Assembly: GCA_965153455.1 (NCBI GenBank)
Contig: OZ234493.1
Coordinates: forward strand, 3,286,001 to 3,350,000
Direction: 5' to 3'
Length of the DNA stretch: 64,000 nucleotides
From: Sphagnum compactum
Lineage: Eukaryota
Shown here: in pieces, positions 11,049 through 46,292 of the stretch
How positions within the stretch are numbered: position 1 is the first letter of the stretch
How the letters are laid out: the number at the start of each line of letters is the position of its first letter
Notes under the pieces: generated by a model
The model's database searches: none
Seen by the model: only the letters and a program-made list of their open reading frames with translations
What the model was told of the DNA's origin: nothing
Translations under genes and position numbers: made by a program

Positions 11049-11307
11049 TGTGAAATGGGTTACTCATAGAAGTCATTGCATGGAACAAAACAATTCAAAG
11101 AAAATAAAAGGAACATGGAATATAAGCCATTTGGGCAGTTGTAAAATACAAACCTAAATGTGAACTAAACTACCAATTTAAGAAGATATGTAGCTTTCTA
11201 TATTAATCCTAATCTAGCATCTCCCTAATCACTACGCTGCTCCAAGCTTCCCATAATCCTCATCTAACATCTTCCTGATCATAAAGCTGTGAGCATAACT
11301 TTCAACA
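11049..11307 (-). repeat. 5' LTR of the inner copia (PBS adjacent at 11038-11048)
   Basis: TGTGAAAT...ACTTTCAACA. The adjoining CTTTGATACCA is the reverse complement of the tRNAi-Met PBS. Confidence 0.9.
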
Positions 11308-14300
11308 AATCACGAGTGTGGGAGACTTGGTGCTGAAGTAAGCACAAGGATCTACTGATGCAGGTTGTAAATCATATTGGATTAGGAATTCATTGAATTG
11401 GTGTTCCAAGCACAACTTGTCTACTAAAATCCATAAATGTTTTTGAAAAGCCAATACACCAAATTTGATCTCGGACATGATTTCTTTGTTTCTTCAAAAC
11501 CTTTGGGCTGCTGCTCCATATAAATCTCCTCCTCCAAGTCCCCATGTAAAAATGTCGTCTATATATGAAACTGCAACAAATCTTATCTTTGACTGCAGCT
11601 ATGAACAAGATTGTCTTGATGGAGTCGAACTTGGTAAATGGTGAAAAAGTTTGCTCGTAGTCAAATTCCTATTCTTGAAAATAAACGTTGGCAACAACGA
11701 CAGCACTGAAGGGATCAATGCTACCATCAGATTTGCATTATTTCACCTTGTACACCCATTTGCTCTTCACAGCCTTTCTCCTTCTGGCAGCTCACAAATC
11801 CTCCAACTAGCATTCTTTCAGGGACTCAGATTTATCATTCATTGCCTTTTCCCACTCTTCTTTGTAGTCTGAAGCAATGGCTTGGTCATACGTTTGTGAC
11901 TCTTCTATCAACTGCTATACAAGCAAAAGACATGTAGGTCCCTGGCAAAGATAGCCAATCACCATACCAACTTGGTGGTCCATGTGACCATTTCCCAAGT
12001 ATCTCAGTACCAGCTCCATCTTCATGCATGGAATTATTGATACCTGGATCAACAACTAATTTGCCTGCACTCCCTTCTAGAATGGTGTCAAATGTTGCAT
12101 GAACCTGTAATGCTCTTGCTAGGACAGTGTCAAGTGTTGCTAATCCCTATGATGCTCATGTTGGGATAGCATCAAGTGTTGAACTGGTCTACGTGATACT
12201 CTTACTGTTGTCTCAATTAGCTGAGGTACATGTTCAATGAGAGGTATGAGATGAGTCTGCCAGTGTTTGGGTACTGCAACTTCTGCATGAACTTTGAGCA
12301 TTTTCATGAAAAATAACATCCTTGCTAATCATGATTTTGTTGTTCACTTTGTCCCAGAGCCTATAGGCTTTACTTTCAGTACTTTATCCAAGAAACACAC
12401 TCTCTGCTCTTAGAGTTCAATTTGCTCTGAAGTAGCTTTTTTGAATGTGCACATAACATCAATTCTAAAGACATAAAGTGTGCCCCATCAGGCTTCCAAT
12501 AGCGCCAAGCTTGTAGTCATTCCTTCTAGGGTTCATGAACATGTGTAATTTACACATAAACTGCAATCTGGACAGCCTTCGTCCCCCAAAATTTCAGAGA
12601 AATACTATGACCATGAAGCATGCATCTAACACTTTCAACAGTTCTATTTTCTCTTTCAGCAACTCCATTTTGTTTTTGAGTATAAGGTTTAACGAGTTTC
12701 TGTTTAACTCCTTCCTGTTCAAGAAAAGACTTCAATGCATTCCTAGTATACTCCCCTCCCCCGGCACTCCTATGTTTGAGAAGTTTGTTTCCAGTTTCCC
12801 TCTCCAAAACTTAGACATCATTTTCTTACAAAGAACTCAGATTTTTTCTGAATGCATAGACAAGTCTATATCCACTATAAGATTGTCCTTGGAACAAAAG
12901 AGGCTCTCTGTCTGAAGCTACACTCAGAGGACCACACACATCTGTGTGAGAGAATCGCCCTGGCTTTTTACCTTTCTGTCACTCTTGGTTGACAGGAAAA
13001 GACTGCTTGTGATTCTTACCATGTGCACATCCAGAGTTCTGGTCTGAAAACATTGATCTTGTGACCAAACCCTTCCTTTTGCATTTTTCTGATCATGTCA
13101 AAATGTACATGTCCAAGATGAAGAACAGGAAACAAGTCTACTGCAAAAGCAAGAAAAGAACCCAAAACAACCAACAATGTACTCACACCAATGTTCACCT
13201 AACAACAGTATATTCCTCCAGAAGAGAGAAGCACTGCTAGTGTTAAGGTAGGAATAGTGACTTGAATTCTTGTTGAAAGATGCTAACTAACCTACTTCAC
13301 AGAAATCCACTCAGAGTTGTCCACTGATCATTTATTGTCTACACAGTGCATTCATTGAACCCAGGCTACTATCCTTGGAATGCTAGTTATCAAATTTCTA
13401 GTTCTTTTTCAATTATTGAGTGAAGATTGTCATTCTCTGCAATTTTCTCAACTTGTTGGAACAAGTTTCCTGCTGTGCAAATTTTTAGTCCCAAAGTCTC
13501 TCTCCTAAGCTATTCTCATGATCTCTGAACATCTATATTTTCTTGGATTCATGGTAGAAAATGCTGAATATTTAGACCGGTCTACTACCACCATATAAGT
13601 TTCCCCCTATATTTCCAGACAATCCAAGGGCTGTGGAGACTGTCAGCTCATTCTTTCAACATTCAAGCTAAAACTAATCTTTGACAGTCTTGCCTGTGTT
13701 CTCTATTGGAATAGGAACTCATGAAATTTCATCCTTTCTTACCTTACTTTATGCCTGAGTGTCCAACTCAGATATCCTTGGTCTTCATAGTGTACCTGTA
13801 AGCTACTATTCTCAGGGCCTTCTTTATCCTCACACCAGATTTTCCACTCTCATGCCATGTATGACAGCATGTCACACTCTCCCAGATCCACAGTAGAGTA
13901 CTGCCAGAGAACAGCTAGATGCGACAATATACCGGACATCCACACTGCCCTCCACAGTCAGGTTTTTGAGCCTTGATTGTCAATTCTGCTGTGTGAGCCT
14001 GTGTGGGCCTAGTAGAATTCGCTGTTGGCAACCCAGTCACTGGCATCAAAAGCCAGAGAATGCCAGGGAACAAGGACAGAATTGGGACTGCTGCAGTGGT
14101 GCCAATGTGTCCACCAAATCCAGCCACACAGGAGCCTGAATAGGGGCCTCCTCCCCTGCCTTTAACATCATTGGTAGCCACCATAATCAGTTTTGGGTCT
14201 TCCTCTAACCTTAAACCACTACAGCTAAATATAATGCCTGTCCAATCAGAAGAAAACCATCTAGATGGCACTGCCAGAAATGTATGGAGACTAAAACAAG

Positions 14301-14697
14301 GGCTCTACAGCATTTCTGCATTCCCCATTCAGGCGATGAGAGCATGACAACAAGCAGCAAGAGGGCACTGATGATGAAGAGAGAGTCAGACATGCCATTG
14401 TTCTTCTGGAGATTGATATTGTGTTTGCTCACAAGTTTGCAATGATAGGAGTGAACTTGAACCATCTAGTATTTGCTTCCATGCTGTCAAGCACTAGTCT
14501 CTCAGCTGGCTGAGCACACTCTTCCACACAGCATCTAACCTTACTCTCTGTGCAAAATGCCTCAAGCAGGCAACCTTCTCTGCTGGAGACCATGCAGAGA
14601 ACACAAAAGAAAAAATGACAAAGTGGACCTACAATCTTTCCTGAAACAAAGCCATTGAGTACAAGACAACACAAATCATGTTTCTGGTCTTCTTTGT

Positions 14698-17600
14698 CTA
14701 TCTAAAATAGTCTGTAGCCCCTTCAGTATGTTCAGAGCTATTTAACAAGGTCCCTACCGTTGATGTGATATCCTCATTGAAATTACAATCATCCTCTACT
14801 TCTGGCAAATCAGATAGCCAGTGATTGAAGGCCTCCAAACTCACAGACAATGCTTGCATTGTTACAGTGTTCAACTGTTTGCATGGCAAGCCTACGGCTT
14901 GTAAAACCTTCTCTGCAACACTGTGCTTCTTTCTGTATCTGCCTTTTCTCCCTTTTCCATCACCCTGCATTATTGATCACACGAACCTTCCATGTCAGAT
15001 GCAGTCTAAACACTAACATAAGATGCTGATAAACTCTGGCAAGCAGAAAAACATGGATAAAATTTGCCAACATTTGGAGTTTGGAGGACATACCTCTCCT
15101 TTAGAAATGCCAGTCACAATGATGAGGTCAGACGTAGGTGGGTTTTGTCCTGCATGAAGCAGCCATGCCAGTAATGCCACTACTGTCCCAGAGCAATTCA
15201 TGTTCCTCACATCACATCTGCATCATCACACTCTGCATCTTAGCTATAGAACATCATTCATCCTCACTATGCCTGCTCTTGCTGTAATATGAAATCATTT
15301 GGTAAATCTGAAACCAAACTTGGAGTCTTGAAGCTCTAGACAATGTTGACCTCACCACTGGTGCATTTCAGATCTCCCCAACTATCTTACAAGTAGAATG
15401 CAAATAGCACCAGGAACTAAAACGTTTTTCATGACACCAGGCATTGCAGGAACAGAACCAACCACTATTCCAAGAAGTAGTCGACAGACTTGGCACACAG
15501 TAGTGCCTTCGAAAGACACGGGTGGAATTGATTCCACACACCCTGAACTCAAGCATGCTAGAATGACTGCCACTGACCTAGAAAGATCATCCTCAACCAC
15601 ATTTTTGAAAAAGCCTGTGGCCACTGCCTCTTCATACAAGCCTATTGCAGCTTCAATGCCTGGCATGAGCCCACATGCAAGATTTTGAGAGCAAGCACAC
15701 AAAAGACTTTCAAGGTGAGTGTCATAGGGTACATTCCATGAACTAGCATGTATGCATATTATTGAAAGCACCAATCTGTACAGTTGTGTCAGGGAGCCAA
15801 TTGATCCCACTCACCAGGGGTGATGTCCAGCTTGCCAGGTTCAGAAGTATTAAGGAAAACATTAGTTCCCTCCTTTCCAAAGCAAGCATCAAAGATGATC
15901 CCATATGACAGTGCTGTTGGTTGTTCCTGTAGTCAACAAAGCCTGTTAGACTTAGTCTGTCACTTAGTTTGTTGAGATTTTAAACCAATTCACAGGAGGA
16001 TAACATAAGTACCACCTCTCCACTTTGTTGCATCATGCGAAAAATGTCAATAGCATTTTGCCATTGCCCTGCTTGGCCATATGCTCCAATCAAAGCATGC
16101 TGCACAACCTGGGAAGATACACTAGTGGTGAGCCTTCAATTAAACAGAAGATACATATATCTTGTCCTTAGTTTTCATTTCCAATTGTCCATCTCAACAT
16201 CACTGAAATCTCAAAGCCACAATTCTAGGTTTTCTGTAGAAAAGAGCTCCTAGAAGACTCCTCACCTCCATTACCATGACAAAAGATGCTCAAAAATCTC
16301 TATGCTCACGATTAACCAGAACCAGGGGAAAAACTTGTAGTTTGTGCACAAACAGATAGTCATGGGAACTTGTGTTGTCTATTTGAACTTCCTAGGGTTT
16401 CAGAGTATTGCTTTTGAGGGTTGTAGTGCCTTATGGACCTCTGTGGTTTGATTCCCCTACCTGAAAAAACACTTGCTTTTAGCCACAACTGAAACAACAC
16501 AACACTTGACCCCCACCTGGGAACCTGGGTCATGGTGAACAACACTCATGCCATTTGCATTGATGGTAAAGAGATCTCCAACCTGATTATGTTTGATACC
16601 AAGTGATTCCATCTCTTCACTCACAGTCAGAGCCCTTGCAAGGTCTTTGCCTTGACCACACGCTGAGACCAATGTACCAAAGGTGATGACATCTGGTTTG
16701 TATCCAGCTTCTCGCATTTTTTTATACACCTGCACAGTGGCTTGTGTTCTTGTCACAACTCTCCAGAACAACTGTCCCCATGCACATCTTGTCTTCTCAT
16801 TGGAGTTCTATCTCTCTCTCTCTCTACACCAATCTGTAACGGTACTGTGCTGAAGCTGGCCCTCTTACAACCTCATGCAAAAGCTGTTGCCTTTGAGCAT
16901 TGAGATACTTGCAGTAAAGACATGAACTGCTAGCACATAAACATAGGAAACTTTGAAGTCATGACCAGCAGTCTCTAAGCAGACTTTACAATGGAAATTC
17001 CCCTATGGCTCTCAACTTTTTCCCACTCTGATCTTCATTGTACACTTGATACCCAACTTAGCAAACTTCAGTACAGTGCAATCCTATAGTATAGTCCATT
17101 GTATAACCAAGCAAAGTGTAAACCTGGAAGGCACTGTCAAGTCCCTCAGATTTGCTGGCAGATTGAATGAGTTTGTTGAAGGTGGAAGAGGTGACAGCTT
17201 TAGAGAATCCTGAATCCGTCATCAACTCGTGTGCTCTTAATGCTCCTGCATGGTCCCCACTCTTCATGCCACAATCCCACCCACATGAGGTTAAACATGT
17301 ATCCTCCAGGTTACCTCTCACAGAATACCTCCATGGGATCCAGGACAACCACAACCACATAATGCCTCACTTGTGATGATCTCAAGAAGTGGAGAGCTTC
17401 AACTGTGCTTAAATCCTGCACTTCATCCTGTACAATGCAGCAAAGCAAAAGGGTGCTGCCAACACTCCATCCTCACTAGAAGTGAAGACCTTTCAAAAGA
17501 TATCATTGCTTTGATAACCTCAATAGCAAGCTTTGGTACAGTTGTCACAAAAGATTTTCACATGTATAGGACAGGATTTTCATTGCTAAATCAACTGAGC

Positions 17601-20600
17601 CAACAGCAACACCAATCTGGTTTCTGGACTACCTACCTTACATGATGCAGTAATGAGATGATTGTATGTTTGGCCATTTGGAGATACATTGTCAATTGTC
17701 TTCATCTCCTCATACAAAGCCCATGCTTTCTCTGCCTGTGATCCTCTCCCACGTAGCAAACTCATTTGACACTTTCTGGCACTCAACACAATCGCCAATA
17801 TAATGCATCTGGATGCTCATTAGGAGCAAATAAAGTACTGCATTGGTTCTAGAGTTTTTGGAGAACACTTTCTGGTGTCAATCATTGCATTGTTATGCCA
17901 TACTCATGTTCTGGATGATGACAGGGGACAGATCCAACAGGACAACCCAGACAGATTGACTACAGTTACAGGTTGGATTCAATAATTATGGATAGATTAA
18001 GTGCCAGGAAACCACCCTCTCCAAAGGCTTGTTGTTCAGCATAGTATAGCAATATATTTTGCTGTTTCTAGATGTGATCAGACAACCATATAAACTGAAG
18101 TTAAGGAAGAGTACATTAGGGTGAGGAGCTGAAGCACAAGCTTCAATGAGGAAGTTGTAAGTGCTTGTTTGTGGTGCCACCCCAGCTGCACACATTTCAT
18201 TGAAGACCTCTAATGCTGCTTTTAAGCGGCCCCCAGACCCTGCTGACTCTAGAAGGATTCCAAATGTGAACTTGTTGGCTGTAACTCCGGCAGCAATCAT
18301 CATTCGATAGATCTCCTGCACTCCATAATATAGGCCACATTGCCAAGGATGACAACCTTACTATATCACATTGACAAATCTCTCTGTGCATATACATCAT
18401 GCATATGAAGTCATGATGTTCAGAAAACAGGACAACACCAGCAGAACACAGGGCAATTGAGGATCAAAATCTGAGATTGAAGAGCTAAACTAGTACCAGC
18501 ACTTTTCCTGGCAATTTTGCCTGTGCACCAGCAAACATGAGTGTGTTGAAAGTGATAGCATCGGGCCGGATAGAACGGTCAAGCATTTCCTTATATAATT
18601 CCAATGCCTTTCCCAGCCTAGCTCCTCAAATTGAGCAACAGGAGAAAAATGTTAATAGGACAATGTAGAATATTGACAGAACCCCAACATTTATGGTGCA
18701 ATTCTGCTAACAGGAGTCGAGTGTCCAGGCCATGACAGCAACACACATCTCCATGACATTCTGTTGGATTTTGTAAAAGAAGTTGAAAGAGAACATATAA
18801 AGTCATGCTTACCGCTGTGCAGGAGAAGAGCGACCACGGTATGGCCCTGTTTTCACAACCAATGCCATTAATGCTGTGTAAGTCACCACATCTGGCCTCA
18901 TTCCTGCTGCTTCCATTTCCGCCTGGACCCAGAGATGAGAAAAAAATTCAGCAGAAAAGCTTTGATATGCATGCTCTTTTGGTTTCAACTACAGTTAACA
19001 AGAAATGGACACTTCTCCAACATGAGAGAGTTGAAGCTATTATTGTTTAAATTGACTGCAGTTGGAGAAATTTTGGGATTGGAAATAGGGCACTAGAAAT
19101 AAGATTATAGCAGAGATCATTGAGAAAACCAGTGGACTTTGATTACCTTAATTCGGAAAGCATCCTCTAGACGCTTTGCTTGGTGGCAGCATGAGATGAG
19201 GGTGTTGTATGTCAGCATTCCTGGCTTCACACCTGCTTGTTTCATTGCCTGTACACAAGGAGAAGTACACAAAAAAGTCAACGAAGGAAAAATAAGAACA
19301 ATTCCAGCTCCCAGTATCCTATCCACATCCAAACTCCATTAGCATTTTTTACACTTGAACCCGGTCTGCAAAAGTAAAGTGTGGAAGTTTGCCCACTGTA
19401 GCTAACCTCATAGATGCTCAAAGCCCTTTCCCCTTGTTGTTGTCTCCTACAAACAGTGATGAGAGCGAGATATGTTCCTGAACACCACTTGACACAGTCA
19501 CATTACTCTAACCTCCCCTCCAGCTTGTACTCAGCAATTACTCCTGGCTTCTACTGTGGACAACAGGGCCTAGCAAGGGATGCACCATACCAATCACAAA
19601 ACCCATTGTCTCAATTGAACAACCCTCACAAACTTACTATTGAGAAGCTTGGGTTGTGACTCCATATATTCTAAACTCCAAACCAAAAATGAAACAATGG
19701 ATCCATAGGAAGAGGTTAAGTTTTGACTTTGTAAAGATAAAAGAAAACCTCAAATGCCAACCCCAACAACACAGAATCTGTTGTTGACTGATACAGTTTA
19801 GGGCTTAGGGTTCAGCATATGATCTCAGGTGTGAGCAAGGGTCCAGAATATGTACATACATGGAAGTACTGACAGTTTCTTTATACTTAAAACATAAGTT
19901 GACATGAAAGAATTGAGGGATCACCCTATACTACCATTATGGATATTTCAGATCTGACAACATATCAGCAAGAAATCAGCAAGCATGGAAAAAGGACACG
20001 CAAGCCTAAAGAAAAGGGAAAATAAGACCAAAAACAAAATTGAGGAGTGGTTCGAATAACAGTGATGGTCATATGCATGTTCAGGGACCTTGAACAGCAT
20101 CATGTATGGTAGGTGTACCATAACATCCCTGCCAATCTCATTGATGTTAATTCGCCTAATACTCAATCCTTGAATGTTGTCAGGTTAATTGTCCAACTAT
20201 CACAAGATGTGAAGAGGAGGGAAAGAGACAGGGATTATAACATCTGTCACCAAATGCACGCCTTCTGTTGAGGCAAGAAGACAGGTGAAGGTGACCCTAA
20301 AACCTGGACCTTGAAGCTAAAATCCAAATCCTGACTCCCTAGATTAAAGCACTGAACTAATCAGGATCTCTAGGCCTAGTGAGTTGTATTTACAGCATTT
20401 TCATGCCCAAAGAAATCAATCAACTTCAGTGTAAGGCCAATGCAGCAATATTGGTGTGTCTGCAGTTCCAAAAGTTTACATTTTAGGCTATGCTTCACCT
20501 CTCTAAGTATCTTTCATAAGAATAGAGAAATCTCCATTCTCACAATGAAGAAAAAACCCCAGCAAGGTTACCACTTCTGCAAGAAACCACAAAAAGATCA

Positions 20601-23600
20601 AGACCTAGGAAAGACAAAAACAAAACAAAACAAACAAACAAGAAACAAAAAACAACGGTATGAACCAAAGTGCCAGTCTCACACATGTTCAGGGACCATC
20701 AACAGTAGTATGTATGATAGTGACTTAACTACCACAACTTCCCCACTTACTTCATCAGCTCCCTACAGTGGGTAAAGGCCAGTGAAAGACACCAACCTGC
20801 GAACCGAGTTTCTGCTGCAAATCTGGAAGCAAGGGGAAGTCTCAGCCATACTACTAGCTAACAACAGACCAGAACACAAGGACAAGACAAAAAACAGACC
20901 AACAGAAATGGAAAAGCAAAACTTTAAAGGAAAGGGGACAGCAGGGAACAAACAAGGAACAAGTGGGCTTACAAGAAGCTCCCCACTTACAAGACTCTAA
21001 GCAAAATCGTTCTGAAAACTCCAAAAGCAGAAGTTCCAAAGAGGAATTTTTCTTTATTAAGCAACCCTCTAGTTCTCTTCAGAAGAATTTTTAAAGGGTA
21101 GCCTTTAACCTTCAGAAGGACAATAAGACTGACCATCTGAAAGACAAAAAACTTCTTACAACTACAAAGCCTACAAGAACCTGTAAAATTGACTATTGAT
21201 AACCCCAGCTTTGCAGTAATTGATATATTGGAATGAACATGAGGCATTCTAATCATTTCAATACCTGCATACTCTGGTTGAGAGCGTTTGTCAAAAATGT
21301 CACAGGAAAAACCTTGAGGACTTTGTTTCACAGCAAGATCTAAGAAATTACAAGAGAAGCCTTTAGACATACAATTCAACTCACAACATGTTTTTGGGTA
21401 TCTGCCACCACCAAAAGAGCCTTGGTTTAGGTACATGAAATTCTCAAAGCCTGGAAAGTCAGGAACCAAAAGATCATCCCCAAACCTATGAACCATGGAC
21501 AATCTATGAAGCACAACAGGACATGTGTTACTCTTCAAAGACGATTAATGAAATCAAACTCATAGGTAAAGATATAGAAGTTTACCAAATTGCACAATTA
21601 GTACCCATGGGATTACCAATGCATTGTCTATAAGCACAATGACCAATAAAAAACAACAAATTGTCTAACAAGAAATCCAACCAAGAGATCAAATCTGAAG
21701 CCTCTGCAACCTTAAAGCTATGAAGATTTTCAAACAAATTGATCTCTGCTTTATTTTTCAGCCACAAAAACCTAAAATTCAAACCTGTCTTTTGCACCAT
21801 CAAAGACTTAAACAACAAAGCTTAAACATCTGATGAAACGCTTTATTTATCAGAGCTCTCATCTGAGCTGATCCGTTAGGTCAAGTTTAGTATATAGAGT
21901 TGAGAAATCAAAAGACTGCAACACGATTGGGAAAGCTTTATCAACTTCTGATCTCAAAGAGTAAGTTTATTTATTACCTCCACCACTCCGTTAAGAGTCA
22001 TTGAGAATCCAACTACTAATACAAGGAACATCTGCCTTTTTGAGTTTAGACACCCAAGGGTCATTGACTGCAGGAAACATAGCTTTAAAGAAAGAAATCA
22101 GCCACTTAGAAACTTCAGTAAGAGAAGTAGAGCTGGCTGCACAAATAAATCTAGGTTTAATCGGATTTTATGAAACTTCCAAACAGCATAAAGAAACAGG
22201 GATGATGGCCACACTTTACACCATTAAAATTATGAGCCTTATTAAAAGAAAGATGAGATTTCAGGATATCAGACTGGGCAAGAATGGAGACCACATACAT
22301 ACCAGCAGGAGAATTAAGCTCAGAGAAAACAGAAGAAACATAGAACTTTTTACAAACAAACACAAAATTATTACTACAGTTATCCATGTAGGTAATAACC
22401 CAGGACCATTGGAGACTCTTTAGTTGATCCAAATCTCCTAAAGGAAGAGACAAAGAAGAATCAGAAGAGGTTTGAACGACAGAGGAAGCACAAGTTCTCT
22501 TCACCTCTCTAAGGTGTACCTAGTGCACTAATGATGCAGATCTGACAGAAATACAGTATGGCATACCTTCATTAGCAGAGTCAATACCAGCAGCCTTCAT
22601 TTCTTCAATAACACCAAGAGCTTCTGTCACAGAAGAACTGCGGCTGATGGAGCGGTTTATGCGCCAGATAGTTTGCTGCAATTTCAACAGCCCTGAAGCT
22701 GAGCGAGAACACAATTCGTCTGCATCAAGAATACACTACATGCAAGCCCCATCCATTCCATTGGACCCAGCAACCCTGCAATCAATCAGCTCTACTTCTG
22801 TGGTACTGCATATTTTGTAAAAACCCCAGCCATAAGCTGCTCAGGTATGTGGGACAACCCCTCCATACAAAGGAGGCTAGGAGTCTACCCTAGCAATTCT
22901 GGTGACACATGCTACATGTGTAGGTAGACAAACCACTTCACTTGGCTGCACCTCTATAACTCTTTGAAAATTTCTAGGCCACAAACTGAGCTACAAGACA
23001 CCATAGTCAAATTCCAGTACTTGCATATTATAGTCAAGTACTCATAATTTCAGGCAAGTGGACACAAGGATGCTGCAAAAAGACCATGTAGGAAATTCCC
23101 ATGTCTTGACATTCACCATATCATCAGATGATCAGCAATAACAGATATAGGCTCCACTATATCATGCACAATAGCTACCTCATTGGTCAGATCAATACCC
23201 TCCTGTTTCAACCATTCCAACCTGGGTGTATGCTGCTGCATCCACAACTCCCACATGATATCACAAGAAAGACAATAATCATCATCTCAAACTGTAGTTC
23301 ATTATGTGAGCCAGTTACAACTGGCATCATATGCTCTTCTTTTGATTCTACTACTCCAGTCCTTTGAAATGTATGTCAATAGAGAAAGCACAATCTGTCT
23401 ACAAAAACAATCTGTCTGTTCGCTTACAAAAATCCCAGAATATTACACTGTAGATAAGTTGCATGTAGCACATAAGAGGGTCATACCGGTTCCTTGGTGG
23501 ACTGAGATTTTTGGCGAGCTTTGACACGCTGACGGCCACCACCACCACCACCAACCCTCTGAGGCTTCTCACTTGTGTTGGGCTTTGCTGTCTCCAGGGC

Positions 23601-24240
23601 CACTAATTCAGTTTCCAGCTCTGCCACAACTGCTCCCAATCCATGTCTGCCATCACATGTAAATACTTTAATGACCAATCCACAATAACAACCATCAAAC
23701 AGAAATTCCGGATTGCCTTGGAGTATGGACACAAGAAATCTACTCACACAATGCTCAGTTACCAAACAATCCTGCTTATGTAAAGTCTTTGCCCTAGATA
23801 TTGGGAACAATTTGTTCCACATTCTGGTGGCCCATGAGGCTTGAAGATATGAGATACCAGGGCACAGAAACATATATGGATCAAATGAAAATCTGAACAA
23901 CATTCAAGCCCAAATTTTCCTGCTGGCCTGCAATGATGGCAGGGTATGACATAAAAGGCACATTGTAGAAGCCAGAAGGATGTCAAGTCATGAGACACAA
24001 ATCACAATGTACTTGGGAATTCAGGCAGTGGAGATGGACAGCCTTCAAAAGGCATACCACTTTGATATCTACTGTCTGGCAGAGAGGTTCTCAATTCCTG
24101 GAATTGCTCACACACTAATTACCACAGAGCTATGGAATTTCTGGCAAGAACTGCTGTGGGTAAGGACCTTACTCACCTAGCATATTGACCACTCTTGGGT
24201 AGCATGAAATGAAGAGTATGTGGCATCATAGATTCTATTC
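14698..24240 (-). CDS. Multi-exon P-class pentatricopeptide repeat protein with a C-terminal SMR-like domain (PPR-SMR); 5' end uncertain
   Basis: Frame-consistent GT-AG exon chain: 24240-24177, 23646-23487, 23232(or 23235)-23179, 22675-22567, 19477-19407, 19248-19147, 18922-18813, 18617-18497, 18315-18115, 17735-17637, 17261-17124, 16729-16583, 16108-16016(or 16013), 15926-15815, 15659-15578, 15217-15094, 14964-14698 (TAG). PPR motifs include TYNTLISCC, PDVVTYTALM, PDAITFNTLM, TYNFLIEAC, PDVITFGTLVSACG. SMR-like CDVRNMNCSGTVVALLAWL...LIIVTG near the C-terminus. Confidence 0.9.
20070..22510 (-). mobile_element. 5'-truncated Penelope-like retroelement (Naiad/Chlamys-type RT) in PPR intron 19478-22566
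   Basis: Frameshifted RT with PLE motifs VITYMDNCSNNFVFVCKKFY, QSFDFSTLYT, YRQCIGNPMGTNCA, TYEFDF, HRFGDDL, CNFLDL, FDKR, and a thumb ending KGYP..LLRVL* at 20987. No C-terminal GIY-YIG. The 3' flank has a partial direct repeat (~20071-20130 vs ~20681-20745). Confidence 0.8.
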
Positions 24241-25899
24241 CTGCAAAATCCCCCTTGCTGCTGACAGGGTTTGATGCACCTCTTACTCCCTAATTTCCCC
24301 AAATGGACCAACCAACTGTCAAATTTCAATTAACAAAGATGTCACAACTGCAAGACTTTCTCCTCATCATTGTGCTGGGATTATGGACAATCAAACCTGC
24401 CTAGAGTTTCACTTTGGCTGTCCTGTTTCTTGGAGGTAAAAGCACTTCCAAAGCAGAAACAAAACATCCAAATTCTAAAACCATACATAGGCCTGTAAAA
24501 TGGAGACAATCCCTGAGAGGATCACAAAAGCAATATGATACGCAGCAGGCCCAATAGTGGGTACTGCGTCAAATCAGGTCAGCAACTACCGAAGCAATTG
24601 GGCTTTTATCAGAGTAGACAATCAAATCTTCTACACCGATCCCAAAATTGTACCAAATTCCTGCCAAAGAAGAATAAACTCAATCTGTCTTGTTGCCACG
24701 CAAAGGCCGCAGCTTTAGGGAAGCTCTAAACTCAGGACGGAAATACCGGATTGTAAGAGAAGCCATGGAGCAGAGCTTGGGCTGCCATCCTCGCCACCAC
24801 TTTGGTCTGATCAACAATAATAATACTACGTGTACGCAGAGTGCATGCCCACTACTACAACAATTGGGATGCTGTCGTCCTGATCATAGCAAAAGAACAC
24901 TCTCGACTTCACATTCTATACCTGAACCTGGACCCCACGCTCACCGCTCAGTGACTCTACCACCCACACGTCATTCCGGTTTGGTTCGCACAAATCCAGT
25001 GACAGTACCCGGAGTTATATCCTGACATCTCTTTCTTGCGCCCAACGCTCCAAATCTAAACTTTATTGGTTCTGCCCTTCAGGGTAGAGACTAGAGACGT
25101 TGTGATGCACCCAGAAACGGGCAAAAATTTGGTATCCCTACATTTTCTAGGGTCATGTGGAGTGAACTATAGAAACATTTCCGGCATAACTGAAGGATCC
25201 ACTTGGGCTTTCACCATGCCAGTCACCATGTGTTTCCAATTTAGTATGTTGAATATTTATCATCCTTATGGATGTCATTGATGTCATTGAAAGGGGAGAG
25301 CCATTATGCAATGAGCCGCTTGTTTTTCAGAGGTTTAGTTGCTGTTGTGACTGTAGGTCTAATGGGGAATGCTCTTGTACTGGGTACTGCCACAGTTAGA
25401 GCAACAGTTTAAAGATGCCATGGTAATGCAGTGTCATCCATGTTAATAGTACACATGCCAGTAGCCTCTGCAATAGGAGATGTTCATATATACCTTTGTG
25501 AATTGGCATCTAGGGCTTCCATTCACATATAAAGCACTGGGAGGACTTTCCTAATGTATTTGGAGCGCAACTTATATCCATGAATGGCATGACCTTAAAC
25601 CCTAAAAAAGAGGAGGGATCTTACACATACTCCTTAAGAACAGGAGAGAAATTATGCTTACTTACAGGCAGAAAGGTAGCATCACACTTGGTGTTATAAG
25701 AGTAGGAAATAAGAACCCTCTTCCTCCTACAGCTCATAATCTACAAATGTTTCTATTCATGATAACAATGTTTATAAGTTCTACAAATGTTTAAGCTCAT
25801 GATCCCGTTCAACCTATGCTTTACAATGGATAGAGCCCTCAGGTGGGCAACATCCCCAAAATGCAGTGCCAGACTTGGCTACCTCTTTGTCCTGGGCCT

Positions 25900-27050
25900 T
25901 TATTTTGGAATAAACCTCCCCACCCCACCTTAGGGCTTTCTCTTATACTTTATCTGGACATCAAGGTTTCAATATTCTAATAAAGCTTGCTAGACACTTG
26001 TGTTCTTTCATAGTTGTCTCCTTCGAGGGAATGAGTGTGGCTCTCTATCTATACATCTTGGTTTTGTTTTATGACATCTCCTTGATGCTTGTGAAGTTAA
26101 AATGTTACATGGAAACTGCACAGCTACATGGTCTAGAACAAACTTCTGACATGGTTTGATATCTAATGCATTAAGTTGTGACATTTATGTGGTTGTGAGC
26201 TTTCATACAACATAATGTGCTTCACAAGGGATTCTGAGTTGCATGTAATTCATCCACTTAACCTATGAAAGCTTGGTGCAGATGGAGTGTGGAGCATGTG
26301 GGCATTGCAACAGTTAGCAACAATCAAGAGGGTGTTAATGTCTAGTGCTATCTAGTGTTTGAATATTCAACAAGCTAGTAGGAGAGATCAAAATTGTTCA
26401 CAACTTGGGGAACATTGTCCAATATTCAAGATTATTCTTTGAAACCAAGAACAATTCAGTTGGTCCTTCTAAGCTTGGGATGCTCATTGTTGCATGTAAT
26501 CAAATGTTTCTAGTCTTATGAAGAAATGTTTTTACTCTAATGGAGACAATGAAGTCCAGAATCTCATAATCTGGCAGATATAAATCTTCTCATCCATCCA
26601 TCCTTCACACATATAATGTTTCCAACTACAACAGGTGGCCAGAAACCCTAGGTTCCAGACAATATGAAGAAAAAGAGTTCTGTCAATCCAGAATACCAGT
26701 GTGATCATCCTACTACTTGTAACACCTACATGGAAATCATTCTTTCTTCATCAACCAAATGAGCACAAATATATTAGTAGTGTCATTGCACCTGTGTAGC
26801 CAGTCTTTCTTTGATTCTTCCTATTTTACCAATGTTGATCTTAAAGAATATTGGCAACCCTTGCTATGGGTGTTGTTCTAGGCTATCTTCTCATGCACCT
26901 ATCTCCTCTCTCTTGTTTCACCATTTTTGCCAAATGAAACCTATTGCTTCTCAACCATTTCAATGTTAGGTTCCAATTGTATAAAAGTGTGACTATTTTG
27001 ACCCATTAACTTCATAAACTCCTCCACTAACTCCTCGATTACATGTTGAA
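25900..27050 (-). mobile_element. Heavily decayed transposase remnant, possibly hAT
   Basis: Fragmentary minus-strand translations (AHMLHTP, FW..V-like) resemble plant hAT transposase motifs. No intact ORF or ends. Confidence 0.25.
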
Positions 27051-27820
27051 ATTTAACATGGGCATGGTGGGCTCTATATGTTGGGCTCAGACGAAGGCCA
27101 TTACAATTTCCTGATGCCCTTTTTATGAGCTGAAGGGCTCATTAATGCCCTTTTATGGGCATAAGAGCCCATTTTACTGTACTCTCAATCATAATAATAC
27201 ATGCTCCTTTTATTTAAAGGTTGAGCCTTACACAAAGTAAATCTCTTGGAGTGGGGCATTGTCGATATGTGGTTTGCTGCCCCTGGCTATTGGTTGTCTT
27301 CATTTGGGAATGCCCTGCTCCTGGAGCCTTACCTACCATATAGGTAAAGCTTTTCATATGGCCTTTTTTGTGTAGGGTAAAGCACTCGGAGCAGGGCATT
27401 TATGGCCTGGGACCACCCAAGGAGGGCCCATATGATGGGCTTTCCCACCTTTCCAGGCCCACCTTAAGGGAAGGTACTTCAGGAATGAAAGCTTTGCCTC
27501 CTGTGGTTATTATGTGTAGGGTAATGCCCAAGGAGGGAGGAGTTCCCAAAATAACTATCCTTGTGGGAGTCAAGGGTTGTTATTTTGGGAACTCCCTGCT
27601 CTATTATGAGGGAGTTACTAGGTGTAAAGTGTGCAACTTGTGCCCGAGATGGAGAATCACAACGTAATGGATGAAGAATTAAAATTTCTTGATAAAGAAA
27701 CAAGAGATCCCACAAGACATGATGAAGAAGTGGGAAATCCCTACGAAATTCATATTTGAAATTATTACTTGTAGTGTGCCCTCCTTAATTAGTGTACTTT
27801 TCTTGGTCAAGGGGTTTATG

Positions 27821-30254
27821 CTGGCCTCATAAGTTTATGGATTTGGCAAAAACCCTTATGGATATCCATAAACTAAGCTTCGGCGCCGTCCATAAACTAA
27901 GAAGGGTTGTTTTCCCACGGTTTCGCGTAGCACGGGTTGTGCACCGGTGCCGTTCACAATCATCGGTGCCTCGAAATGTCGAAGAAGCTTGCCACGCCAT
28001 TTCAGCCGGCGCATTGCCTCCAATTCGGACTGAAGATCGCCGAGGAGGCGAACAAGCGCGTCACGTCGGTGCGCTGCAACTTCTGTGCCTTCTTCGGCCG
28101 CGCTAAGCTCAAGGCTGGTGACGAGCACGCTGGCGAAAAGCGCCAGCGCAGCTCGCGCAACAACACCAAGTACTGGACGTCGTTCGCGCCGCAGAACTAT
28201 CGTAGTCACCACGAGTCGCAGCACGCCGATCTATGGGCCGAGTACAGCGCGTTGTCCAACGAGGAGAAGTGCATGCACTTTCATGGCAAGGCGAACTGTG
28301 CCAACACGCTGCACCGGTACGTTAACTTGGAGTTCGACTCGTTCAAGTTCCACGTGTCGGCGCCCATCGTCGATGTCATCATCTTCGACCTGTTCTTTCG
28401 GCCCGACGAGGTGCTCGTCGACTTTGACGACGACGACGACGAGGACGATGGCGGCGCGGCCGCCGCGATCGCCAAGAACGCCGCCGCTAAGGCCAAGCAG
28501 AAGACTCTGGCGCTCAAGCTGTTTGTCAAGGACGTGGCGAACGTCGATGAGGACGAGTATGTCGTCACCATCAAGGGCACGATGCAATACGAGCTGCCCA
28601 TGGACCATGTCTCGACGGGAATGTCGTTCCGCCAAATGGCGGCCGCGATGCAGCATACCAAGGAGCGCTGCAGCCTGTCCAAGCTGGGCGGCATCAATGA
28701 CACCATCGTCGGCCAATACGTTCGCGTCCGCGTCACGTTCGCCCTTCAGCGCATTGCCGACCTGTGCGTCGACGAGTCGATCTGGGTGCTGTCACTCGCC
28801 GGCGACAGCAGTACCCACCGCGGCCAACACTTCTTCAACCTCCGCCTACGCGTGTGCTACCGCGGCGTCCTGCTAAATCTTCACCTCGTTGCCATCCCCC
28901 AGTTTCACCGCCACACCGTGCTCAACACGTTCAACATGCTCGTGAAGTTCCTGGACGTGCTGTACGGCCTCTGGCGCCGCAAGCTAATCAACGTGGGCAC
29001 CGATGGCGAGCCGACCATGGTCGGGCGACTCAACGGCCTAGTGACGCGCATGGCCCGCGAGGCAGAGCATCACGTCCTGCGCATCTGGTGCCCGCCGCAC
29101 GAAATGGACGTCGTCGTCAAGGACGGCGCTGAGATGCTGTACGACGGCGAGTGGTCCAAGCAGGCCTGGTCGCTGTCGGTCTATCTACGGCAAACCTAAT
29201 CATGCGCATGAACGTGAAGTGCCCCAAGAAGACCAACCGTTGGCTCAGTCCGGGCGTGCTGCTCAACTTCCTCAAGCAGTACCGTCGCACCATCGTTCAG
29301 CACGTGACGGCCAATGCCAGCGACAAGCTGCTGTCGGATCGATGGTGGGTCATTGCTTACGCCATCGAGGAGATCAATAAGACGTTCGTCATGTTGTAGA
29401 GCCGCTCGCAGATAATCGCGCAACAAGAATCGCTCATCCAGACGCTCATCGGCACTCTGGTCGCAATGTTCGGCATCGTCCACGCCGGCGACGCCGACGA
29501 CGACGGCGACGAGTTCGAGACGTTCGAGCAATGGCGCATCGAGCGAGTCGAGTTCGTCCTCTACGTTAAGGACCAGGGCTCGTTCCCCAAGTTGTGCTAC
29601 AAGCGCCTGGACGCGCCAGCCCAGAAGGAGGTCATGAGCCAGTTCGCCCAGTACGCCATGTTCATCGTCACCGGGCTTGGCAACATCCGCGCTGAACGCG
29701 ACGAAAACAATGAGCCGTTCGAGCAAGATGCCCTGCCGGTGATGCCTAACCAGATCGTCAAGCTACGCCACGGCGACTTCATTGAGCAGGTGCTCGACCC
29801 GTACCGCGACCATCTCTCCAAGTTCTGGTCCGAGGAGTCCATCGACTAAGTCGAGGAGGGTCATCGCTACCTGCTCAAGATGTACAACGAGGACGCGGTG
29901 CTGCATGCCGCCTTGGACAAGCACGACGTGCAGACGACTTTCAACGACGCCTAGGACGCGGTGCCACAACAAGCGCAGGTCGAGCGCCTGCGCGCCTTCC
30001 TCGACGGATTGGCCACCGCCTTCGCCAACACGATTGCTGTCGAGTCCGACTTCTCCATTCTCAAGTGGGAGATGGATGAGTTCCGCACCTGCCTGATGCA
30101 CTTGTCGCTAGAGGGCATCTTCCAGACCAAGCAGCACCCCATCCTGCAGAGCTTGGAGTACTGATTCCTTGCGTCCATAAACTAAGCTTGGGTGGCGTCC
30201 ATAAACTAGCTTAGTTTATTTAGTTTATGGATATCCGTAAACTTACGAGGACTG
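27821..30254 (+). mobile_element. GC-rich hAT-superfamily DNA transposon, full length with TIRs and an 8-bp TSD
   Basis: Perfect TSD GGTTTATG (27813-27820 and 30255-30262). Imperfect TIR CTGGCCTCATAAGTTTATGGA versus reverse complement CAGTCCTCGTAAGTTTACGGA. Repeated subterminal CCATAAACTA motifs at both ends. Confidence 0.93.
27976..30164 (+). pseudogene. Disrupted intronless hAT transposase
   Basis: MSKKLATPF... with a Zn-finger-like CNFC...HHESQH, catalytic LAGDSST and GTDGE, CxxH (WCPPH), and C-terminal VESDFS. Frameshift at ~29195; premature stops at 29397, 29847 and 29952. Confidence 0.88.
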
Positions 30255-33200
30255 GGTTTATGCCTTCGTTTACTCCCCTTGCAAGGCATAATTGACAAGC
30301 CTTTGAGGGTTTAGTTGACCAAACCATTGTTGAAAATCCACAATGGGGGTTTTCAACAAATGACTCATCATGCAAATCATGAAATCCATTATGCTATAGA
30401 GCATGCCAAGTACAAGCCATTGTGCCTATTTCATTGCCCATTCAAATAATTTGGCTTTAAGGACTCAGCTCGCCCAAATTCCTCACAATCATTTCATTGG
30501 GCACAATAATATGTAATAAGTCATTAGGCATTTCGCAAAGCAAGGGTGTGTTACTTATAGTGTTTCATGGTAATTTGTTTTTACAAAGTAAAAATGTGTT
30601 GTGTTTTATGTGTTTTACATCGTGCAATGGCCTTGGGCCAAAAGGTTCTTGAAATAATAGGCCTTTAACCTCTAGCCTTAAGGGCGCACTATTTTGGGAA
30701 TGCCTTAGTCTTGGGGTGTTACCATAGGCATAAAAACTTGATTGTGTTCTCTAGGGCATTTGTAGGTACCTTACAAAAGGTGCAATCATTTGGGGTCACT
30801 TTATAAATTTGTAAAATGTGTTATAAAGTGCCTCTAAGGTGGGAAATTCAAATTATGTCAGTGTTTTATGTAAGGGAAGGGCAAATCAAATCAAGAGCCA
30901 TGTCATTATTAGAATTAGGAACTAGCGTTGCCATAATGCCACTCATGCCTTTGAACAATGAAAAAACCTTACCTATTTTTCTCTTTTGTATTTGCAAGTA
31001 TGTCCTTAGGGAGAATTGTTAACGGGTAGAAATATCTAGACTAGTTAGTTTCTTACCCAAGGGGTGAAGCTACCCAAGGGGTGAAGCTAGTGGGATTAGG
31101 TAGCCCAAGTTAGTGAGTGGTTGGGATAATTCACCTAATATTTAGAAGATTTTTAAGAAGGGATTAAGATAAGGCCTTATTTTTTAGGGGTCAATGTGTG
31201 CCTTGTGTGGTATGTGGGGAAGAGGGACTAGAGGAAGTGGGGGAGGATTGGGGAGGGACATTCGAGACTTTTGGAGTGGGACATTGGAAATGTAGGACTC
31301 TCATAAAGAAGGAAGGAAAGAATGAAAAAAGATGTATGTACTTTGTGTGTGATTTTAATGGAAGATGGTTGAAGGACTTGAACTTCTTGTGTTGTATTGG
31401 TATTCTAGTAAGGGTGGAAGGTAGAGTAGTTGATAATATACAAGTAAGATGTTTTTTTGAAATAATATGTTTACAATTTTTTTAAGACAAAAAGTAACAA
31501 GGCTTCCCATTGGTAGCTTTTGGAGCAATACGCTATTGGCTGCCGCAGGAAGCTAGCAACCAATCCTTAATGGAGGATAGCAAGGGGGGAAGACCAGCAA
31601 ATAACTGCTTGCAAATTGAAAGGTACAACAACATGCAGTAGGCACATGTTAACAGGGAAGGCAAATGGTTATAGATGGTAGAAAGTAGAGGAGGGATTTC
31701 TTGAAGTGATGTAGGCAGCAAACAAGGCCATAAGAGGACTTGCAAGTGTAGGAGAGAAGGGACAGTAGTGGTAGAAGGTTGGCAGATCTCTTAGATAACA
31801 TCTAGGGGTGTTGAAGGTACTGCAGAACTAGGAGAGTAGTTACTCTTGGGTTTTGCCCATTTCTCATGTTTCCCTTTTCTATTTTCTCCCCCTTACCCCT
31901 TGGTTTATATTACTTATTAAAGGGTAGGTTTAGTCATAGGTAGTAGACCTTTACCTACCTCATTCCTCTTTGTATGATTTCTTATTTATTACTTGAGTAG
32001 TTGTAGTAAAATAAGTTAATGAGGGTAGTTTTTTGTGTGGAGTAATAAGGTGTTGACCTTGTCTTCGAGTTTTACCCCTTGGAAAATGGTAATGATCGAA
32101 GGTTGCAATTTCACCCCTTAACAATAATTTTCATGTGCATTGAGGGGGCATTTTGTGAATTTGTAAAGTTTTCCTAGTATGTTTTTTCCTAATGCAAAAG
32201 ATTCATATTTAAAAATTATATTATCTTTTTAATGTAAGGGAAGGTTTAGGCCAATAGGCATTGGTTTGTCTATAGGCATGACAAAATAGGGTAATAGGCC
32301 TAAATGGGCATTCATTTGTTTTTAGGCAAAGAAATACATACCTCTATGCATAACCTATTGTTGTGGCCTTCTTTTACAAACAATGAATGTAATACCATAC
32401 ATATTTCAGCCATGGGCATTTGCCAATGTGACTTTTTTAGTGAACTTTTGTTTGTTTAACTCATTTCAAGCTTTTTGTTTTGTTGCAACTTTATTCTCAT
32501 GTGTTTATTCCCCACCATCAATTAAATGAACACATTATAGGCCCTCCTTCTTTAGTTCTTGCAACATTTAAATTCTTAACACCATAACTTCTTGAGACCA
32601 ACCTTTTAATCTAACTTCACAAATGTGCAACTTGCATATTAATGATTGATTTTTTTAGGTGTAAATGGTTACTTTCAATTGTAAATGTCACATGTGATTT
32701 GTTATAATGTCTGCTCGTTTTGGACAAGTTGTATAAAATTTTAATCGTAAAAAAATGATGTACCCATTTAGTGGCAACAATAATCACATCAAAGTGCAAC
32801 TAACATGAACTTTCCATTTAATTAACATTTAGCCAATGTGGAAGAATCATTTATGATTAGTTTTTATGACTAAAATGTGCAATCACATATGCTTATGTGA
32901 TACAACTATTTGCAATTAAAATGTGTAGTCATATTTGATATAGAAAATTAGAATGTACACATGTGACAATAAATAATACTTATTAATTAATCTGTATAAT
33001 AAAAAATAGTGTAATCATGATAGCTACCAAGTTTAAGCTAAAGTAGGGTAGCGAACCTATTTTAAGCTAAATTTGGTTATGATAAACAACCTATCCTAGG
33101 TTAAACTAAGGTATAATACACAACTTAGCAAAGTTTAGGTCGTTAGGTAAGTTTAGTATAGGGAAGTCTTGGGGGCGACACTTAGTGTAAAATTTGGGAT

Positions 33201-45900: not shown

Positions 45901-46292
45901 GAAGCAGTCAACATCTACGCTCTCACTGGTGATCATCACTGCACTTCCTGGTAGCCGGCCGGGAGATTTGCATTCCTAGAACCCTCTTGTCCGGTGGAGG
46001 ATGTGCAGGTTTTCGCTGAGCGGGATGGGTTTACTCTGGGCTATGATCTGAGGGATTGTTCCGACAGCTTAGGCGACACCCAGGAACGATATTCATACTG
46101 CTGCAGGCCTCTGTGTTCCAACTACTGTAGCAATGATTTCAGCCAGCCTCCTAATGGTATGAAACTCAGCGACTCCTTCTCTACCTCGCCGCAAGCAGAC
46201 TGATTGGATCACAGGTTCCTTCAACTTCCTAGTTACTAAACCGTGAGAAACCACGGAATGCTGGCGGATCAGATTCCGAATCGTAAAGGTGT

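Follow-up and report, generated by a model that had tools for sequence, protein, structure and literature searches.

A 64,000-nucleotide stretch of the peat moss Sphagnum compactum (contig OZ234493.1, positions 3,286,001 to 3,350,000 of the forward strand; hereafter the window) carries one block of DNA whose base composition is alien to its surroundings, which raises the question of what this block is and how it came to lie in a moss genome. An earlier note on the window had read it as a hAT transposon and a candidate for horizontal transfer from a high-GC microbial eukaryote. We consider it likely that the block is a dead autonomous hAT copy, and that its family entered Sphagnum on at least three occasions, through horizontal transfer from, or exchange with, oomycete-like eukaryotes.

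The block is a complete hAT-like element of 2,434 bp on the forward strand, running from position 27821 (CTGGCC...) to 30254 (...GGACTG). Nucleotide similarity to other copies begins at 27812–27825 in 13 metagenome copies (L001–L009 and L017–L020) and ends at 30243–30248 in the 11 whose locus includes the 3' end. Identical 8-mers, GGTTTATG, flank the element at 27813–27820 and 30255–30262 as a target site duplication (TSD); by an arithmetic estimate, a perfect 8-bp match at the junctions would arise by chance with a probability of about 1.5e-5. The 22-bp terminal inverted repeats (TIRs), found by a repeat search, lie at 27821–27842 (CTGGCCTCATAAGTTTATGGAT) and, on the reverse strand, at 30233–30254 (reverse complement CAGTCCTCGTAAGTTTACGGAT), and are complementary at 18 of 22 positions. 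Within the window a 20-mer of these repeats occurs at the two ends only, where shuffled sequences give an expectation of 0.01, and the left terminus recurs in L001, L003, L004, L017 and L018. Internal to the TIRs are a 5' subterminal region (27843–27975), in which CCATAAACTA and TTTATGG motifs are repeated (repeat families D4, D11, D15, I3 and I18), and a 3' subterminal region (30165–30232) with the same short repeats (D4, D11, D15, I3 and I22). A Mutator-like reading with a 10-bp TSD, GGGTTTATGC, was dropped because the two letters beyond 8 bp belong to the element itself, as its first C and its last G, and because relatives show 8-bp duplications. None of the tandem or long direct repeats in the window is related to the element.

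Between the subterminal regions lies a transposase frame of about 730 residues, now in two pieces. The N-terminal part (P0001, 27976–29196) is an open frame of 407 codons containing a CxxC...HxxxH finger, both catalytic Asp residues and a CxxH motif; the C-terminal part (P0002, 29199–30164) has 321 codons and a TGA stop, and holds an SVESDFS-type motif with the catalytic Glu. Both pieces align end to end with 730-residue relatives and are free of introns, so the compact, intronless 2.43-kb element with a perfect 8-bp TSD described earlier holds to the exact coordinate, and the motifs its author named are present in the sequence. The earlier count of one frameshift and three stops also stands, although it missed a 12-nt in-frame deletion after 29359 and a 3-nt insertion at 28432. 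The frameshift (29188–29190) is a private 7-nt deletion after 29188, where 8 of 8 other aligned copies have seven more letters. The in-frame stops are at 29397–29399 (TAG), 29847–29849 (TAA) and 29952–29954 (TAG), and the last two are likewise private, the corresponding codons being CAA in 8 of 8 and TGG in 7 of 7 other aligned copies.

Both states of the insertion site can be seen in short-read contigs. Contigs from a same-species run (X2), which may be the very sample behind the assembly, cover 27300–27910 and 30216–30800 with no differences, and one of their loose ends reads through the site of the 7-nt deletion. The empty site is found in two runs under other species labels, X9 (one contig) and X14 (one contig, depth 46.4), which join 27811 directly to 30254, a joint that skips 2,442 nt with 10 letters ambiguous; over 428 nt, 32 differences and 3 gaps separate the X14 flanks from the window. 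In read contigs of X9 and X14 the depth of the element's termini is several-fold above that of its interior. Insertion of the copy thus postdates the split of its host species from two related ones in which the site is still empty. The composition break is abrupt at both ends, as it would be if the GC-rich block were an assembly chimera or contaminant read-through with no true insertion. The perfect TSD and matching TIRs, the same-species contigs across both junctions, the exact empty site under two other species labels and the presence of the same element at other sites with TSDs of their own make such an artifact exceedingly improbable.

The composition that first drew attention to the block is extreme. 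The element has a GC content of 0.586 and a CpG observed/expected ratio (o/e) of 1.265, and the GC content at third codon positions (GC3) is 0.853 in the N-terminal part and 0.860 in the C-terminal part, which bears out the claim of G/C-rich third positions and CpG richness. These GC and CpG values are not approached anywhere else in the 64 kb: in 567 windows of the same size the means are 0.349 and 0.292, and the maxima are 0.487 and 0.906 (the window starting at 45601, which overlaps a GT47 gene). Set against the recipient, the side of the comparison for which there are figures, element GC3 is 0.85–0.88 versus 0.565 for one host gene and CpG o/e is 1.27 versus a window mean of 0.29. Of the 12 open reading frames of at least 150 residues in locus flanks, 11 were scanned for host genes, and the sole matches were to a reverse transcriptase and to an endonuclease domain. 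Outside the element, Pfam matched none of nine among ten reading frames of at least 130 residues, and the tenth is the GT47 gene. This neighboring GT47 frame shares 97% identity with a protein of Sphagnum magellanicum, in keeping with a Sphagnum host.

Sequence methods fail to place the protein in hAT: Pfam assigned no family to the window's two pieces, searches of 5 and then 38 relatives gave sub-threshold touches only, and sequence searches of the PDB, whether with the protein itself or with a profile of 38 rows, returned no transposase. The fold was predicted for P0003, a relative to which P0001 is 64–65% identical (P0001 is 87% identical to P0184), in place of the broken window protein, and the AlphaFold model built from a 38-row alignment has a pLDDT of 88.6. 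In a Foldseek search of the PDB, the best 11 matches listed are all to the Hermes transposase of the house fly (2bw3, 4d1q, 6dww, 8sjd and 8edg), with E values of 1.6e-10 to 1.6e-7, target TM scores of 0.50–0.64 and about 500–566 aligned columns at 12–13% sequence identity; the next among the matches listed, ISCth4, has an E value of 7.8e-4. As in Hermes, the RNase-H-like core of the modeled protein carries an Asp on its first strand, a second Asp after the fourth and a Glu on a helix near the C terminus, with a large insertion of helices between them, and both elements have short TIRs and make 8-bp duplications. All 38 sequences compared share D270, D336 and E691, which the window copy keeps, and C365 and H368 of the CxxH motif, which reads WCPPH in the window copy, are nearly invariant in the same set. 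C32, C35, H72 and H76 are conserved with a long spacing, and one of the 38 relatives touches zf-BED below threshold (E = 0.05); two of the 38 touch Dimer_Tnp_hAT (PF05699), also below the cut-off (best E = 0.058). Perfect 8-mer TSDs flank relatives L001 (CTGTAGCA) and L017 (CCATTGTG), and that of L004 matches at 7 of 8 positions. The Hermes-like fold of the model, taken with the 8-bp TSD and the TIRs, supports the earlier assignment to the hAT superfamily, and because the relative's model matches Hermes only, at such low identity and with no significant Pfam or PDB sequence match, the element is best described as a divergent member.

Unlike Hermes, the present family has a longer N-terminal region with an acidic run of Asp and Glu. 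A second group for comparison is that of the Buster-type elements and their domesticated kin (ZBED5, FAM200, GTF2IRD2 and EPM2AIP1), which are marked by the domain PF27073 (FAM200-ZBED5_RNase-like). ZBED5 and FAM200 derive from Buster elements. In two lists of relatives, precomputed annotation assigns PF27073 to 5 of 14 and to 6 of 49 entries; however, the local Pfam copy gave no match to it, and DUF4371 and Dimer_Tnp_hAT go unrecognized in this family. Atlas feature neighbors scoring 0.89–0.93 carry PF27073, DUF4371 and Dimer_Tnp_hAT and are leads rather than alignments. The plant Ac/Tam3 elements belong to the same superfamily and resemble the present family in their 8-bp TSD, in the short repeats near their ends and in a motif of the S-x-E-x-x-F-S type toward the C terminus, which the Ac transposase also carries. 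The present family differs in that no Ac-like plant protein is found among the relatives and in that the base composition of the window element is far from the host's.

Taken together with analogy to Hermes, these features suggest how the element would have worked. Its transposase combines a CCHH finger with a DDE core of the RNase-H-like type, which, as in Hermes, is interrupted by a large domain of helices. The enzyme would recognize both the 22-bp inverted repeats and the subterminal repeats, cut the element out and insert it elsewhere, duplicating 8 bp of the target. Once in place, the copy gathered changes of the kind left by plant CG and CHG methylation with subsequent deamination, along with the 7-nt deletion and the three stops.

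The element is far from alone in these mosses. The 13 metagenome loci are 84–92% identical to it per blastn segment, with similarity confined to the element, and the same subfamily, at 88–89% nucleotide identity, is multi-copy in several Sphagnum species and in moss metagenomes, and so are two or more further deep lineages within the family; host copy number is known here from read contigs. The earlier description of the element as foreign to this genome is therefore apt for its composition but not for a family that is multi-copy across the genus. Nor does the claim of a fairly recent invasion hold as stated, since the window copy differs from its subfamily consensus at 98 of 2,344 sites (4.2%), mostly by methylation-type changes: 61 of the 98 are C>T or G>A, with 29 in CG, 21 in CHG and 9 in CHH contexts, the context of the last 2 being unclear. 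Among the other 8 copies, the share of differences that are C>T or G>A is 76–94%. GC3 is 0.88 in the consensus, 0.857 in the whole window copy and 0.77–0.81 in the others. The copies have decayed from a GC-rich, CpG-rich ancestor with a GC3 of about 0.88, mainly by C>T changes at CG and CHG sites. At least one lineage retains intact frames of 723–729 residues (L015, L016) and, judged from its sequence, might be active. Given the multi-copy family and the 4.2% divergence, repeated invasions at the level of the genus are a better reading than one recent event.

It is also conceivable that the family is an old vertical resident of the Sphagnum lineage, its patchiness due to loss and poor sampling, with some process of host or element keeping GC3 and CpG high; examples would be codon selection, a lack of methylation on active copies, or gene conversion among copies with a bias toward GC. 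The family is indeed diverse and abundant in Sphagnum, in three deep clades. Furthermore, moss-like flanks (at least 1 kb, AT-rich and CpG-poor) surround the element in 47 of 80 metagenome loci, and these loci, which span 36–87% identity to the window copy, have transposase GC3 of 0.69–0.84 and CpG o/e of 1.01–1.35, a contrast with the flanks that also counts in favor of transfer. Every such lineage is GC3-rich, and something in Sphagnum could therefore keep these elements GC-rich; 6 loci with short flanks have GC3 of only 0.42–0.61. Against such a keeper, inserted copies demonstrably shed C in CG and CHG contexts, which sets the moss's own mutation pressure against a high GC3.

The distribution of relatives also bears on the question. 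Of 49 relatives of P0003, 16 are named and comprise 10 from Sphagnum, 4 from oomycetes, 1 from a diatom and 1 from a lamprey. Peronospora matthiolae (68–73% identical) and the chytrid Batrachochytrium salamandrivorans are further named relatives, and 10 further cluster representatives yield a single organism label, a marine transcriptome record. Hosts of copies include Aphanomyces astaci, A. invadans and A. euteiches, Peronosclerospora, Fragilaria and Lampetra. The best and largest Atlas cluster has 86 members, with Oomycota the commonest phylum among the 80 for which the phylum is known. Sphagnum supplies the only land plants among the 16 named relatives and among the names from other relative look-ups, a named minority set against 1,629 related clusters mostly without names, on which the vertical explanation can draw. 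That the named relatives lie outside other plants agrees with what the earlier note had said of this transposase type.

Trees of 58 and 27 rows, built from protein sequences for the oomycete, diatom and lamprey copies, both show three Sphagnum clades, each beside oomycetes. One of these clades is nested within Aphanomyces, branching after A. invadans and then A. euteiches (supports 100, 87 and 94), and a second has Peronospora as its sister; the 58-row tree places Peronospora in an unresolved polytomy with Sphagnum copies. A single Sphagnum clade, a group chosen for the AU test after the first tree had been seen and on trees rooted by a chosen outgroup, is rejected, with a log-likelihood lower by 802.85 (p-AU = 2.8e-7). 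The sequence data thus support a tree grossly incongruent with organism phylogeny and a patchy distribution among named hosts. In light of the rejected single clade, the interleaving with Aphanomyces and Peronospora and the lack of other named land plants, we regard long vertical residence as unlikely.

Transfer could also have run the other way, with Sphagnum as donor to oomycetes and others, or all hosts could have drawn on an unsampled wet-habitat source such as a protist or a virus. Peat moss, the oomycetes, the diatom, the chytrid and the lamprey mostly inhabit fresh water or its surroundings, which would suit a shared source, and both the polytomy that holds Peronospora and the rooting by a chosen outgroup leave room for a reversed direction. 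The Sphagnum clade nested in Aphanomyces suggests movement from oomycete to moss for that lineage, however; Oomycota prevail in the largest cluster, and the GC- and CpG-rich ancestor is unlike moss repeat DNA. Searching viral contigs for two conserved motifs produced 64 pattern matches, none of them a relative, which is weak evidence against a viral vector. We judge this alternative quite unlikely.

Horizontal transfer between oomycete-like microbes and Sphagnum is thus our best reading of the sequence comparisons, and the family has probably crossed kingdoms, with transfer best seen as genus-wide and repeated rather than as one recent event. The family would have entered Sphagnum from, or in exchange with, oomycete-like microbes at least three separate times, and if so the GC- and CpG-rich look of the element is a composition that the moss genome has yet to erode. 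More specifically, there may have been at least three invasions of peat mosses by oomycete elements, Peronospora-like and Aphanomyces-like, each a GC- and CpG-rich burst that was then methylated and eroded, a scenario we hold tentatively and at somewhat short of an even chance. P. matthiolae itself is no recent donor, given its 27–32% protein divergence, and its assembly may be contaminated.

Horizontal transfer of hAT elements has documented cases in hobo of Drosophila and SPIN of tetrapods. The present family resembles these in its patchy hosts, host-incongruent tree and copy bursts from one founder, but its hosts span kingdoms (bryophyte, stramenopiles, chytrid and vertebrate), its protein identity between hosts is moderate (45–73%) rather than near-identical, and its tree implies that it entered a single plant genus several times over. 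Transfer of transposable elements between distant eukaryotes is well documented in animals and much less so for plants. Titles and abstract openings in the literature yielded nothing on transfer from an oomycete to a bryophyte, and no such case is described in the part of a 2025 Plant Cell review covered here (PMC12448838).

A single plant genus thus holds several independent lineages of one transposon family beside oomycete lineages, and the family comes with a built-in clock, as its copies begin GC- and CpG-rich and are eroded via CG and CHG methylation. Through this erosion the timing, number and direction of transfers become measurable once oomycete DNA is compared, and the copies are a natural record of the pace at which silencing and decay overtake a newcomer element in a moss genome. 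If the proposal is true, Sphagnum and its parasites or bog neighbors would constitute a recurring route of cross-kingdom transposon exchange.

The hAT-like element lies on the plus strand at 27821–30254 of the window (2,434 bp; 5' CTGGCC, 3' GGACTG), exactly where the earlier note had placed it, and the same 8-mer, GGTTTATG, flanks it at 27813–27820 and 30255–30262 as a perfect target-site duplication. A 10-bp reading of this duplication was dropped, as the two additional letters common to both sides belong to the element itself, being its first and last bases. The ends form 22-bp inverted repeats (18 of 22 positions complementary), the terminal-repeat 20-mer is found within the window at the two element ends only (0.01 places expected from shuffles), and the short subterminal motifs CCATAAACTA and TTTATGG are repeated close to both ends. 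Among metagenome loci that carry copies of the family, an 8-bp duplication is also present at L001 and L017, with 7 of 8 positions matching at L004. Eight short-read runs from organism A, the same species as the window, contain 0.31–0.91 of its words, and in one of them (X2, possibly the assembly's own sample) contigs on 27300–27910 and 30216–30800 cross both element ends with no differences, so both junctions are bridged. An empty site is carried by run X14 of organism D, where a 428-nt contig (depth 46.4) covers 27624–27811 and then 30254–30494, its flanks differing from the window by 32 differences and 3 gaps over the 428 nt; one contig of run X9 (organism B) has the equivalent joint, and none was found in X2. 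The window copy was therefore inserted after the host lineage split from organisms B and D, and the bridged junctions and empty sites together exclude an assembly chimera. Just downstream of the element's flank, the 1-kb bin at 31001–32000 shows a strong positive GC skew (+0.37).

The composition of the element is as extreme as the earlier note had described. Its GC is 0.586, its CpG observed/expected ratio (o/e) is 1.265, and G+C at third codon positions (GC3) is 0.853 and 0.860 in its two frame pieces; among 567 windows of the same size from the rest of the 64 kb, none approaches it (means GC 0.349 and CpG o/e 0.292; maxima 0.487 and 0.906, with the CpG o/e maximum over the GT47 gene). That gene, an intronless 532-codon ORF at 46287–47885 (+) with an Exostosin GT47 domain (E = 1.3e-69), is the one clear host gene in the window and serves as a single-gene baseline: over codons 46455–47882 its GC3 is 0.565 and its CpG o/e 1.02, and no other part of the window besides the element has a CpG o/e near 1. 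Its protein is 97% identical to one from Sphagnum magellanicum, followed by other Sphagnum paralogues and mosses, and as judged from these matches the host is a Sphagnum. The stretch at 10001–27000 (GC 0.36–0.45, steadily negative GC skew, very low CpG o/e of 0.10–0.29), whose six ORFs of at least 130 aa have no Pfam match, probably consists of repeats that are old and have decayed heavily, and a 300-bp tandem repeat (2.8 copies, 53960–54809) sits in the window's most AT-rich part (GC about 0.20).

The transposase frame starts at an ATG at 27976 and runs for 407 codons to 29196 (+; piece P0001); it resumes after a shift at 29199–30161 (+; P0002), with stops at 29397, 29847 and 29952. The one frameshift and three stops read from the sequence earlier were thus correct, and aligning the window copy with eight other copies places them. 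The shift is a 7-nt deletion after 29188 and, like a 12-nt in-frame deletion after 29359, is private to this copy, which also has a 3-nt insertion at 28432. Two of the stops, those at 29847 and 29952, are likewise confined to this copy (the others have CAA in 8/8 and TGG in 7/7), while the third, at 29397 (CAG to TAG), is common to L001/L002 and L008 and is TAA in L009. Each of the three is due to a C>T or G>A change. The CAG codon at 29397–29399 is converted to a stop in copies of different subgroups, reflecting repeated deamination of a single CHG site or else an old founder polymorphism.

Sequence methods are nearly blind to this family, and structure decides its assignment. Pfam finds no match on the two frame pieces, Dimer_Tnp_hAT touches 2 of 38 relatives (best E 0.058) and zf-BED one, and the 38-row profile finds no transposase among PDB sequences. 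A predicted structure (pLDDT 88.6) of P0003, a 730-aa relative 64–65% identical to P0001, returns Hermes transposase for all of the best 11 PDB matches listed by Foldseek (E 1.6e-10 to 1.6e-7; target TM 0.50–0.64 over about 500–566 aligned columns), the shared feature being the fold; the next listed match is ISCth4 (7.8e-4). D270, D336 and E691 are invariant across the 38-row alignment, C32, C35, H72, H76, C365 and H368 are nearly so, and the window copy retains all nine. In the model, one aspartate lies on strand 1 and the other follows strand 4; a long helical region stands between this pair and the glutamate, which is carried by a C-terminal helix. On this predicted structure and the 8-bp duplication, the element is a divergent hAT transposon, in line with the earlier note. 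PF27073 (FAM200-ZBED5_RNase-like), which occurs on some relatives (5/14 in one set, 6/49 in another), hints at the Buster branch.

The element is one of many. Four runs were compared (X2, X9, X14 and X19, one labelled a moss metagenome), and all contain many pieces of it at 88–99% identity (132 in X2, 37 of them at ≥99%; 366 in X9). In X9 and X14 depth at the termini is several-fold that of the interior, and loose ends common to both runs, at 27988 and 30189, mark an exit after the first ~168 bp and re-entry ~66 bp before the end. Together these indicate internally deleted derivatives, which suggests a short non-autonomous family in these related species. A metagenome scan yielded 80 loci of the family, 13 of which (L001–L009, L017–L020) match the element at 84–92% per blastn segment, with similarity beginning at 27812–27825 and, in the 11 of these 13 whose locus includes the 3' end, ending at 30243–30248; none of the 13 has an intact frame.

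Nine independent copies were aligned, leaving out L002 because it and L001 represent one insertion. The window copy is 87.5–89.6% identical to each of the others (84–94% among themselves) and differs from the majority consensus at 98 of 2,344 sites (4.2%). C>T or G>A changes make up 61 of these, beside 17 reverse transitions and 20 transversions, and fall at 29 of 492 CG, 21 of 233 CHG and 9 of 589 CHH sites (2 unclear). The other eight copies differ at 3.3–7.2% of sites, 76–94% of C>T type, and such changes are also frequent among differences between the runs and the window copy (X2 104/221, X9 291/480, X14 266/430, X19 305/499). As the consensus is itself GC- and CpG-rich (GC 0.60, CpG o/e 1.21, GC3 0.88), the subfamily derives from a GC- and CpG-rich founder, from which the window copy has eroded less than most (GC3 0.857 versus 0.77–0.81). 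Each copy decays independently, probably through methylation of CG and CHG sites, as in plants, and subsequent deamination, a mechanism suggested by the pattern of changes. The earlier note had proposed a foreign newcomer; the foreign composition stands, but the scale does not, as this is one eroding copy of a multi-copy, Sphagnum-wide family.

Related clusters number 1,629 at E up to 0.001. Organism names are attached to 16 of 49 relatives of P0003: ten Sphagnum (fallax 3, jensenii 5, magellanicum 1, balticum 1), four oomycetes (Aphanomyces astaci, A. invadans, A. euteiches, Peronosclerospora sorghi), the diatom Fragilaria crotonensis and the lamprey Lampetra planeri. Further relatives occur in Peronospora matthiolae (two fragments, 68–73% identical), Sphagnum balticum (99 aa, 85%) and the chytrid Batrachochytrium salamandrivorans, and in the best Atlas cluster (86 members, phylum known for 80) Oomycota is the commonest phylum. 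The microbial-eukaryote kin suggested in the earlier note are therefore present. No land plant besides Sphagnum is among the named relatives, which are a minority and include none of the last 10 representatives checked; with few relatives named, absence from other land plants is weakly established.

Trees of 58 rows (quick search) and 27 rows both contain three separate Sphagnum clades. The first holds the window copy, S. jensenii a and c and moss-metagenome loci, with P. matthiolae inside or sister (support 99–100); the second holds S. fallax, S. magellanicum and L015 (sister to an S. magellanicum protein) in a polytomy with the lamprey, diatom and A. astaci; and the third, which unites S. 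balticum and S. jensenii b and d, is nested above A. invadans and A. euteiches. When the 11 Sphagnum/moss rows are constrained to a single clade, the log-likelihood falls by 802.85 units (LG+G4; p-AU = 2.8e-7), for a group that is taxonomic but was tested after the first tree was seen.

AT-rich, CpG-poor flanks of at least 1 kb surround 47 of the 80 loci, and the N part of the transposase in these has a GC3 of 0.69–0.84 (median 0.74) and a CpG o/e of 1.01–1.35 across 36–87% identity to the window copy, so every deep lineage in moss-like DNA resembles it; six loci with short flanks only have a GC3 of 0.42–0.61. This fits repeated entry from GC-rich donors. Some moss-side process that keeps the family's elements GC-rich would also fit a richness shared by every such lineage. 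The measured decay of copies towards T argues against long residence in moss. Horizontal transfer of the family is likely, and its direction, donor and date are inferences. No publication on this case was found among titles and abstract openings, and the part of PMC12448838 consulted describes no oomycete-to-moss transposon transfer. Intact frames of at least 680 aa are present in six of the 80 loci (L012, L013, L015, L016, L033 and L042). Those of L015 (3989–6178, 729 codons) and L016 (3989–6160, 723 codons), in AT-rich, CpG-poor moss-like flanks, belong to a different lineage, 48–50% identical to the window copy, and judging by their frames may still be active. The family has probably spread through the genus Sphagnum after several transfers.
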